A stretch of 64,000 nt of DNA from Octopus vulgaris (taxonomy: Eukaryota), in the NCBI GenBank assembly GCA_951406725.2, contig OX597816.1, forward strand, positions 54,932,001 to 54,996,000. Reading direction: 5' to 3'. The notes below the pieces were generated by a model. That model searched no databases, was not told the origin of the DNA, and saw nothing but the letters and a program-made list of their open reading frames with translations. The translations under genes were made by a program, and so were the position numbers. Below are positions 50,601-61,645 of the stretch, piece after piece. The number at the start of each line of letters is the position of its first letter. The first letter of the stretch is position 1.

Positions 50601-53600
50601 AAATATCTCAAGTTGTATATAATATTATTATTGGAAAAAGTTCAAAGTCTTACACCTATTTCTGGGATATCCCCGAGTATGGGATATACCGTCCTCAGAG
50701 GCAAATAGGAAAAAATAAAGAAAATGAGAATGGTATATATTAATGAGATGACGACATAGAGGAAGGGAGTAAAAGAATAAGGAGATGGAAAGAGAGAAGA
50801 AAAAAGAAGCATAACTGTTCATAATTTAACTTATTGCTAATACCACCGCTAATACTAACACTATTACCAATGATACTATTACTACCGCTGACATTGATAA
50901 CGATACTATAAAAGACAGCAATAATAACAGCAAACCCACCCTAACCACTACCAGCATTACCTCATCTCTCTCTTCAATTAACCATCATAGAACTGATAAT
51001 TACAACTGCAGATCCGGCATAGATTACCCACTGCAAGCCCATTGCAGAAGATTCAACATCGTATACCAATGCTCCATTCACAATATAGTAAATAACTCCT
51101 GTAGCTACAACATTGGATCTAGAACTATTTTTAAACAAAGGTATTATGTACATTTAAACTCTTTTAAATATATAGACAATATCGATTCCACATCTCTAGC
51201 CAGCCACATACACCAAATTGTGGGTTAAAATTGTGAGGGCTTCTTTTAAGCAGAGTCCACAACTGGAGTGTTGGCCTTGATATGAGATACCCGAGTATAT
51301 TATAGCCCAGGTAGGTTTATACTGTTTATACGGGTTTTCTCTCCCACCCTTCCCTATTCTTCTCCTCTCCCCTCCACCTTATTCAGATGATGAATATTTA
51401 AGAATATTTAAGAAACTGATATTAATAGATCAAACGTACAGAGTGTAAACGACAAAGAAAATCAATGGGGAAAAGATAATGTGTTATAAGTCCAACAGCT
51501 GTTTTGGGGGCATGAAATCCATCATAATGTAGGTAGATGTAGGTCACCGCAATAAGTAGGCCGTAATGAAAGCAAATAAAGATTAGGTAATTCGATGATG
51601 AGCCTAATTGCCTCCACATCTTTTCTTCCATGATTCCTCTTATAGCCACACTTTACCCCGCAGAATTATCTCTTCGTAAATACACTGGAGTCTAAGTTCG
51701 AATCCTTTGCGCACGAGTACGTACTGAATCTCAACTGTTGAGATCGTTGTGTAAAAATGGTACTGTAGGCTTCGTGCTGCAAGGAGAAGGAGAAAAGCGA
51801 CTGCAAATATACCACCTGCACTGACTTGCAAGATCTGTGGCCTTTTTCGCAAATCGTTGGCGGGACTTAAATCTCACATTCGACATAAGCATAATAACTG
51901 ACAACGAAAGAGTGCGTTGTCGGAGTCTTGTACGTCGAAACCGACAAGAGAGAATATATATATATATATATATATATATATATATATATATATATATATA
52001 TATATATATATATATATATATATATATATATATATATATATATATATATATATATATATATATATATATATATATACATTATTTCAGCCATGACTAACCC
52101 CTTTGGCGCAAGGGGTTAGTTAAATAAATCGACCACAGTGCTTACCCTTTAAAACCTGGTACTATTCTATGGGGTTCTTTGCCCAAACTGCTCGGTTATA
52201 GAATCGTAAACAAATCAATACAGTGGTAGGTGACAAAAACATACACATGCGCGGGCACACACACACACAGAGATACACACGCGTGCACACACACACACAC
52301 ACAGACACACACACACACACAGACACACACACACACAGACACACACACACAGAGACACACGCACACACACACACACACACACACACACACACACACACAC
52401 ACACACACACACACACACACACAAATTAATATTTGTTTTTATGATCATTTATAATACAAACAATTTTACATTTATCTTGTAGGATATTATGTACATTTGT
52501 AGAGTAAAAATTTATTCTAAAACAAAAGTGTTTCTGACATTAACTTCGAAGTTTAGGTTTGCTAAAACCATTGTCAAATTGCTATGCATTAGAGTTAGCC
52601 TTGCCTTCATATAGTCTCTGCTGAGTCTCATCTTTGAATGTGTGGTCTTTCGTGGGGGATAACTAGTCTTTTATGATTGATTGTTATGGAAAGATGCTTT
52701 GGAAAAATTTTAGTTGATTAAATTTGGAGTTATAACATTGTTTAGAACTCATTCATGTATACAGAATCTTGTCAACAAGCCTGTAGTATTTCTCTTTTGT
52801 TAGGTAGGCACAAGATGTGATAGTATTTGAGCTCAACTTTTTAATAGATTTTAATAGATTTATTGATTGCATGTTTATTTCTTTACATTGATTTTCACTG
52901 CGTTTCTCAGTTCATTATGAAATGTTCATTATCGGATTTCAGTTGTTTCGTAATTCGTCAACGCTGTTGTTTCTTAACTTAAGGTTATTCTATTGTGTTC
53001 TTTAAAGTTGCTTCCGTTTTCCAAGGAGTACAATGCGTAGAATGATATAGATCCAACCTCTTTATTTTGAATTAAATTTTAGTTTAGTCTGCCATGAACA
53101 ACATTAATTGTAATGGTCTTGTTTTAATGTTTCCTGGGTATATTAAACATTTCTTCCGTCCGTCAAATCATTCAGTTTAAATGCTTATTAGTATGGCAGT
53201 AACACAATTTAGAACCAGTTAAAGGTTTTAGTGAAGATGGTAAACCTTGTCCCCACAGCCAGATGCAGTTAATAGATTGGTTCCAGTAAACAAGTTGAAG
53301 CTTACCTTTCTGATGATTTTCTGAAGTTCCCGAATTCCAAAGAGTCGAAAAACAAACCAAAGTTTCAGAGAAATGAACGGACGTCCGCAAGGAATTTGCC
53401 ATTTCTAACACAAAATGAAAATATACAGGCAGAACATTGAGCTACGGTTTTCTTCTTTGTCAAGCAATCTCTCTCTCTCCCTCTCTCCCTCTCTCTCTCT
53501 TTCTCTCTCTCTCTCACACAAGCACGCACACACACACACACACACACACACACACACACACACACACACACACACACACACACACAACAATACACGTACA

Positions 53601-61645: not shown

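Follow-up and report, generated by a model that had tools for sequence, protein, structure and literature searches.

A 64,000-nt window on contig C3 of the Octopus vulgaris genome carries, on its minus strand, exons 6-12 of a relative of DOPA decarboxylase (DDC, also known as aromatic-L-amino-acid decarboxylase or AADC), here termed gene B. The gene is a tandem duplicate of cephalopod DDC, intact and spliced, in which the catalytic residues are kept and the loops around the substrate pocket are changed. On balance, we favour a role as an amine-forming decarboxylase that depends on pyridoxal 5'-phosphate (PLP) and would act on a substrate other than DOPA or 5-hydroxytryptophan (5-HTP); the likeliest candidate is an amino acid with a polar or basic side chain, held through Asp101. 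The suggestion of a basic substrate hangs on one residue; it is the weakest step within this reading and is put forward tentatively.

Structure, transcripts and ancestry of gene B

A spliced model built against RefSeq proteins places gene B at C3:55010421-54970436 on the minus strand, with 12 exons, 1488 nt of spliced sequence and 495 aa without an internal stop. Its introns all have GT-AG borders (11/11), in agreement with an earlier sequence-only reading of the window that had described a frame free of stops and perfect splice sites. The product differs at a single position (E339D) from the O. sinensis RefSeq protein XP_036356876 (P0001), and D339 is also carried by the O. vulgaris-named protein P0374. 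Exons 1-5 (C3:55010421-55010218, 55006726-55006613, 55002698-55002579, 55001117-55000983 and 54997738-54997595, minus strand) lie 1.6-14.4 kb past the window end and encode W71, F79, F80, S82, D101, V102, I103 and H192 in human DDC numbering, which was taken throughout from an alignment of gene B to human DDC. The part inside the window (38436..64000, minus strand) begins with exon 6 (61579..61645, 67 nt), which encodes T246, and exon 7 (60754..60848, 95 nt), with D271 and A273 in the motif IDAAYA. Exon 8 (60244..60311, 68 nt) carries ICVSPHK, comprising N300S, H302 and the PLP lysine K303, and VPTGC, comprising N308P, F309T and D310G. The catalytic loop with Y332, followed by D345N and R347T, is encoded by exon 9 (59634..59727, 94 nt), while H348K, L353C, G354, R356P and R358I fall in exon 10 (53306..53404, 99 nt) and D381 in exon 11 (43955..44056, 102 nt). 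The coding part of exon 12 (38436..38681, 246 nt) supplies IHIGC, R447, a basic, cysteine-containing tail and the stop, and is followed by a 3' untranslated region (UTR) reaching at least to 38214 (38214..38435).

The motifs quoted in the sequence-only reading are present on the minus strand (ICVSPHK at 60299, VPTGC at 60269, the catalytic-loop motif at 59696 and IHIGC at 38627), and its human numbering agrees with our alignment. Its bounds of 53306..60311 run exactly from the start of exon 8 to the end of exon 10, but leave T246, D271, H381D, IHIGC and R447 outside, in exons 6, 7, 11 and 12. The motif covering the R347T-H348K-L353C-R356P-R358I region straddles the junction of exons 9 and 10 (59634/53404).

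Expression was judged from exon junctions in run contigs, and contig depth was not used for ranking genes; junctions alone were used because the runs are coded and none is recorded as RNA. The runs carry the organism labels A (X14, X16 and X1), C (X5) and D (X7 and X12). Among the four runs aligned to positions 59300-61750, the junctions of exons 7-8 and 8-9 were spliced exactly in all four (X14, X16, X1 and X5) and that of exons 6-7 in three (X14, X16 and X5), with the 5-6 junction present in X14 and X16. In X14 and X16, loose contig ends match the end of exon 5, and in X16 and X5 they match the start of exon 10; the X16 and X5 contigs continue from exon 9 across the 9-10 junction into the first 30 bases of exon 10. 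Of four runs compared at the last exon, X7 and X12 provided 1.43-kb contigs (~89% alike) that pass from exon 11 through the 11-12 junction and the stop into the 3' UTR, covering 38214-38683 unbroken; X18 gave unspliced or short pieces, and X5, which has no cover there, is uninformative. Together, the spliced contigs span junctions 5-6 to 9-10 as well as 11-12.

By sequence, gene B is a group II PLP-dependent decarboxylase, with a Pfam PF00282 match of P0001 at 428 bits against a cut-off of 27 that spans profile positions 1-375 of 375. It stands in a head-to-tail array on the C3 minus strand, between paralog C (C3:55070113-55017615) and a canonical DDC gene (P0012; C3:54919995-54882813, with FNFNPHK, VNFDC and DYRHWHVPLGRRFR), and all three share the 12-exon layout and intron phases. 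Gene B is 60% identical to paralog C and 52% to octopus DDC. The canonical gene sits 50 kb downstream, and gene B belongs to a separate clade; it is neither the genome's DDC orthologue nor a single cephalopod DDC, the outcome that the sequence-only reading had named as fatal to its proposal. O. bimaculoides holds orthologues of B (P0368, 87% identical) and C (P0372) and a third paralog, A (P0369). Full-length models of gene B exist in O. sinensis and O. bimaculoides, and three or more named Octopus species retain the gene.

A maximum-likelihood analysis of 24 proteins (LG+G4) unites the paralogs in a single clade (100/100) and nests it among the coleoid DDCs (100/100), on a long stem of 0.58 changes per column. 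A quick tree of 42 proteins (LG+C20) recovered the same nested paralog clade with a stem of 0.95 changes per column. The HDC and TDC rows, approximate tblastn stitches with a few wrong residues at exon edges, served as outgroups only. A position of the paralogs as sister to Argonauta and Octopus DDC was weakly supported (86/64). By the approximately unbiased (AU) test, grouping the paralogs with HDC was rejected (p=0.0004), duplication after the Argonauta split was weakly rejected (p=0.04), and duplication before the octopod-decapod split was not rejected (p=0.28). Synonymous divergence between B and DDC is saturated (dS above 4), in line with an old duplication. Assignment of gene B to HDC or TDC was also rejected on its G354 in place of Ser354 and on the separate branch formed by HDC and TDC. 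The phylogenetic comparison proposed in the sequence-only reading places gene B outside the orthologues of DDC, HDC and TDC. We found no B orthologue outside Octopus among the best 120 of 5149 matches, none among 98 short matches to a paralog-only profile (eight of the best or highest-identity of which were ordinary or decapod DDC types) and none among the best 150 representatives, where P0008 alone came up; as the searches were capped, this does not amount to absence.

Kept catalytic residues and a changed pocket

Gene B was compared with 109 rows, mostly DDCs, derived from the best 120 of the 5149 matches. Of these, 10 that were duplicated, fused or chimeric and 4 that came from paralogs were dropped, and the DDC, HDC and TDC models of this genome were added. 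Residues kept in gene B are W71, F80, H192, T246, D271, A273, H302, K303, Y332, G354, R355 and R447, among them the seven listed in the sequence-only reading (T246, D271, H302, K303, Y332, G354 and R447); K303, H192, D271, A273, T246, H302, Y332, G354 and R447 are kept in B of both O. vulgaris and O. bimaculoides. The PLP machinery, described earlier as intact, is so at K303, D271, H192 and H302 but departs from the family at N300S, A148S and S149T. Asn300, a phosphate ligand, is kept in 109/109 rows and is Ser in gene B; Ser300 occurs in 14/308 other family rows.

Changes extend through the gene. Its 5' exons contribute Y79F, T82S, I101D, G102V and F103I, and recovery of these exons, which confirmed H192 and F80, strengthened the remodelled-pocket reading through these five changes. 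Further changes comprise C100T, C111A, A148S, S149T, F297I, N298C, F299V, N300S, N308P, F309T and D310G, those of the Y332 loop (F326L, R327P, D329P, P330G and H335C) and, on the 3' side, D345N, R347T, H348K, L353C, R356P, R358I, V436G and P437C. The replaced neighbours are normally conserved, as the sequence-only reading had supposed. Their loss is not a chance effect: F309, H348 and R358 are found in 109/109 rows, R356 in 108, R347 in 107 and L353 in 102, while F103 and G102 are, like F309, kept in every row, DDC, TDC and HDC included. Its H381D was not specific to this gene: D381 is also present in octopus, Argonauta and decapod DDC (D in 22/109 rows) and is uninformative. An Asp or Glu at position 101 occurs in 0/278 family proteins outside the paralog set that have a residue there.

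The roles of I101, F103, T82, N300, R347, D345, L353 and Y332 are taken from PMC8003434, PMC12443470, PMC12078590 and PMC7497351. There, I101, F103 and T82 lie at the catechol ring and N300 and H302 at the PLP phosphate; R347 forms hydrogen bonds with D345 and L333, and L353 packs against F103 and R347 (PMC8003434), with a further contact between R347 and H348 (PMC12443470). The contact partners D345, R347 and H348, like the pair F103 and L353, changed jointly along the stem leading to the paralogs; this suggests that the loop 2/loop 3 lid was re-fitted and did not simply decay at random. Paralogs A, B and C have in common G102V, F103I, D345N, H335C and changes at F309, R347, H348, L353 and R356; D101 and F79 are found in B alone.

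Gene B has lost 39/152 invariant residues, compared with 7 in octopus DDC and a median of 1 among the 109 rows. These losses are enriched in loops 1-3 (13/28 vs 26/124, p=0.008; ranges from PMC8003434), an effect that rises when the 297-311 strand, added after the finding was seen, is included (19/39 vs 20/113, p=0.0003). No such enrichment was detected in DDC, C, HDC or TDC. In ordinary DDC, the loop segments are the best conserved, with 3/78 vs 65/396 columns differing between Octopus and Argonauta; between B and DDC they are the most altered (48/78 vs 175/396, p=0.006). Gene B and its O. bimaculoides orthologue P0368 differ at 3/152 invariant columns, compared with 27/150 variable columns (p=1.4e-6), and 36/39 new residues are identical. 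The pocket columns Y79, T82, I101, G102, F103, F309 and L353 read F, S, D, V, I, T and C in both species, and identity is 100% in exons 2 and 8, where new pocket residues lie (23/23 residues for exon 8), compared with 87% overall. From sequence comparison, gene B fits a 'changed once, then held' pattern of functional divergence. The ratio of nonsynonymous to synonymous rates (omega) between B and C is 0.36, well separated from an omega of 1 by twice the log-likelihood difference (2dL 53.6). With spliced contigs, intact 5' exons and constraint at invariant sites, gene B is not the unexpressed, disrupted copy that the sequence-only reading had allowed for.

Weighing the candidate functions

If gene B acts as we favour, its homodimer would bind PLP at K303, with a salt bridge from D271, stacking by H192 and S300 and H302 at the phosphate. 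Formation of the external aldimine and loss of CO2 would be followed by protonation of the intermediate by Y332 to yield an amine, as in DDC biochemistry. The catechol cage of Y79, T82, I101', F103', F309 and L353' (primes denoting the partner subunit) would be lined by smaller, more polar residues. Loss of aromatic walls (F103I, F309T) together with the gain of an acid argues against catechols, indoles and kynurenines and toward a polar or basic side chain; the aromatic, indolic or kynurenine-type substrates proposed in the sequence-only reading thus found no support. More speculatively, and with low confidence, octopuses may have a small family of new decarboxylases derived from DDC, in which B, whose Asp101 stands at a position that is neutral in all other family members examined, would act on a basic substrate, namely arginine, lysine, ornithine or a histidine derivative, and A and C, with Val101 and Tyr79, on other substrates. 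Such an animal basic-amino-acid decarboxylase on an AADC scaffold would yield an agmatine- or diamine-type signal or secretion. An AlphaFold2 monomer of B (predicted local distance difference test, pLDDT, 81.9; predicted template modelling score, pTM, 0.83) supports the AADC fold, not the pocket. Foldseek likewise returned AADCs as the closest solved structures (TM 0.75 to 8ORA), at a root mean square deviation of ~15 A to all AADCs, and no geometry was therefore taken from the model.

Several observations weigh against a substrate-shifted, active enzyme. Single changes at G102, R347, L353, R358, F309 and N300 each reduce the activity of human or pig DDC (PMC8003434), and all six positions are altered in gene B. 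The model's pLDDT falls below 50 at 98-108 and 329-354, that is, in loops 2 and 3, and the direction of Asp101 is consequently not readable from it. Paralogs A and C carry Val, not Asp, at 101, and the loop enrichment of C is non-significant (8/28 vs 26/124, p=0.45). Selection is relaxed, B orthologues being 87% identical compared with ~95% for DDC, and the omega of the B branch (0.47) is inseparable from 1 (2dL 1.15) in a three-sequence model with a saturated DDC branch. Between-species codon scoring, which covers part of exon 12, gave 5 synonymous and 13 non-synonymous codons against X7 (44 S and 154 N sites); the counts come from 40/46 difference rows, with 8/13 of the non-synonymous codons in the tail. 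Taken alone, the remodelled sites showed no significant excess of conservation (3/38 vs 25/138, p=0.21; 5/78 vs 48/397, p=0.17).

We consider it unlikely that gene B encodes a low-activity or non-catalytic DDC-like protein with another role, such as binding PLP or another ligand, or forming mixed dimers that modulate DDC or paralog C. The six altered positions would suit such a protein, as would the T246V, A273S and, in O. vulgaris, D271E of paralog C, given that an Asp-to-Glu change there leaves rat DDC with 2% (PMC514703), and B- and C-type contigs share runs (X14, X16 and X5 for C). On the other hand, B keeps its catalytic set in both species, which also have its new pocket residues in common, and the dead nematode duplicate C05D2.3 lost the VDAAYA motif (same source) that survives in B as IDAAYA. 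With this motif intact and its Asp271 kept, gene B was rejected as a C05D2.3-type non-catalytic duplicate. Outright decay of a transcribed duplicate is disfavoured and hardly credible: 39/152 invariant residues are lost and the branch omega is inseparable from 1, but frame and splice sites are intact in O. vulgaris, the gene is full-length in O. sinensis and O. bimaculoides, and the 3/152 vs 27/150 split between columns argues for constraint. A dS above 4 from DDC implies ample time for the gene to break, yet it is intact.

The posterior salivary glands of octopus contain abundant biogenic amines, and gene B might still decarboxylate aromatics (DOPA, 5-HTP, Tyr or Phe) with altered kinetics in a separate tissue, for example to make bulk amines in a gland. 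Descent from DDC, the kept G354, W71 and F80 and the AADCs as nearest solved structures speak for this; it is nevertheless quite improbable in view of the changes at F103, G102 and F309, which are kept in all 109 DDC-, TDC- and HDC-containing rows, and of an Asp at the catechol-ring contact I101 that 0/278 rows share. More doubtful still is a change of chemistry in which a mis-seated loop would make gene B an aldehyde synthase (decarboxylation-dependent oxidative deamination) or the catalyst of some other PLP side reaction. The Y332 loop is rewritten and its anchor R347 lost, mis-positioning of this loop alters the reaction specificity of DDC (PMC8003434, PMC7497351), and Y79F matches the Phe of mosquito 3,4-dihydroxyphenylacetaldehyde (DHPAA) synthase (PMC12078590). 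The known switches, of which the sequence-only reading had named loss of the Tyr332 equivalent in plants, are however absent: H192 is Asn and F80 is Tyr in insect DHPAA synthase (PMC12078590), and Y332F turns DDC into an oxidative deaminase (PMC7497351). With H192, F80 and Y332 all kept, gene B was rejected as an aldehyde synthase of known type.

The array, its surroundings and related enzymes

A genome-wide Pfam PF00282 search gave at least 26 matches at the level of exons, and 15 of these fall in the 170 kb surrounding the window on C3. Separate loci hold an HDC-like gene (C14), a TDC-like gene (C6:11.97-12.04 Mb) and two GAD/CSAD/GADL1-like genes (C17 and C6:58.7 Mb; one exon each checked). 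As canonical DDC and HDC-, TDC- and GAD-like genes are all present, gene B is an extra gene and not a replacement for a missing one. Paralog C is intact, with 12 exons, 485 aa and Y79, V101, V102, I103, T246V and A273S; its residue 271 is Glu in O. vulgaris and the protein P0011 named for that species and Asp in O. bimaculoides. This paralog could be another new enzyme, or its activity may be waning in the O. vulgaris lineage. Paralog A of O. bimaculoides (P0369, P0004 and P0006) is a mosaic of C-like exons 2-3 (89-98%), B-like exons 4-9 (85-100%) and a distinct exon 12 (about 50%), which suggests unequal crossing-over or gene conversion. The 264-kb O. vulgaris region, interrupted by a single gap of 100 bases, yielded no equivalent of A; beyond it, coverage of the genome came from the Pfam search, whose count is a lower bound. 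The last intron of canonical DDC contains five tandem copies of a ~1.7-kb unit (C3:54886143-54893122), seen as evenly spaced tblastn matches. Variant DDCs also occur in decapods, with F80Y, P81A, T82L, I101S and L353F in P0375 (P0375 and P0379 being Sepia pharaonis and another record) and L353M and G354E in the fragment P0270. They seem younger and particular to decapods, alongside the canonical copies P0376-P0378, and possibly represent parallel diversification.

Within gene B, intron 10 holds a 415-codon open frame with a reverse transcriptase domain (45648-46892, minus strand; Pfam RVT_1, E 9e-21), and intron 11 a 138-codon frame (40934-41347, plus strand) that resembles a DNA-transposon remnant by eye, with no Pfam match. 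Fragments at 36056-36927, 57079-57540 and 25091-25618 look like long interspersed nuclear elements (LINEs), again with no match in a Pfam search. The C-terminal tail (38436-38495, minus strand) extends 19 basic, cysteine-containing residues beyond the DDC fold; it changes quickly relative to X7 (8 non-synonymous and 0 synonymous codons), and both cysteines are kept in O. bimaculoides.

RefSeq and UniRef already contain these proteins under the generic name 'aromatic-L-amino-acid decarboxylase', and RefSeq treats B and C as isoforms. The O. sinensis entry XP_036356878 (P0002, RefSeq isoform X2) joins exons 1-6 of C to exons 7-12 of B and is either an annotation artefact or read-through splicing, the latter of which would mix pocket halves. 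The 900-aa O. vulgaris model P0374 connects B to DDC through small predicted exons (21495-21593 and 18043-18069, minus strand) and leaves out exons 2-3 of B; this fusion is probably an artefact, since the X7 and X12 contigs, from another organism label, pass through B's own stop. With the generic naming, the P0374 fusion and the isoform listing, octopus 'DDC' probes or counts may be mis-assigned.

The literature searched, mostly non-subscription papers and without the O. bimaculoides genome paper, held no description of the octopus paralogs: six accession numbers returned 0 papers, as did octopus with salivary gland and agmatine, and the readable supplements of PMC9712504 and PMC9815951 gave no match. 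Gene B is a real, conserved and expressed DDC-derived paralog with an unusual pocket that is apparently undescribed. The AADC-family enzymes of an animal determine its range of transmitter and secreted amines, and an octopus subfamily that is conserved and expressed, and whose pocket differs from those of DDC, HDC, TDC and aldehyde synthases, points to octopus amine chemistry not yet tied to an enzyme. It also offers a natural experiment for AADC deficiency, with six positions damaging in mammalian DDC replaced together under purifying selection.

Gene B resembles DDC/AADC (human 3RBF and 8ORA, pig 1JS3, Drosophila 3K40 and octopus P0012) in its fold, PF00282 domain, catalytic residues and G354, but differs in its replaced catechol pocket and loop 2/loop 3 network, N300S, paralogous status and faster evolution. 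HDC (4E1O) and invertebrate TDC belong to the same family and illustrate that changes in the pocket can shift the substrate there; both have S354 and retain G102, F103 and F309, whereas B has G354 and the other three changed. DDC duplicates with changed function, as in insect DHPAA synthase (PMC12078590), or with lost function, as in Caenorhabditis elegans C05D2.3 (PMC514703), are already known. C05D2.3, a tandem duplicate of the AADC gene bas-1, is like gene B an old duplicate beside a working AADC under relaxed selection; 59% identical, it has no VDAAYA and hardly any expression, and C. briggsae lacks it, while in gene B the motif survives, spliced contigs occur in several runs and at least three named Octopus species retain the gene. 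DHPAA synthase, or alpha-methyldopa-resistant protein (6JRL), is likewise a DDC-derived paralog with an altered active site and has taken on a new role, with N192 and Y80 and with I101, F103 and L353 kept for DOPA; gene B, in contrast, keeps H192 and F80 and changes I101, F103 and L353.

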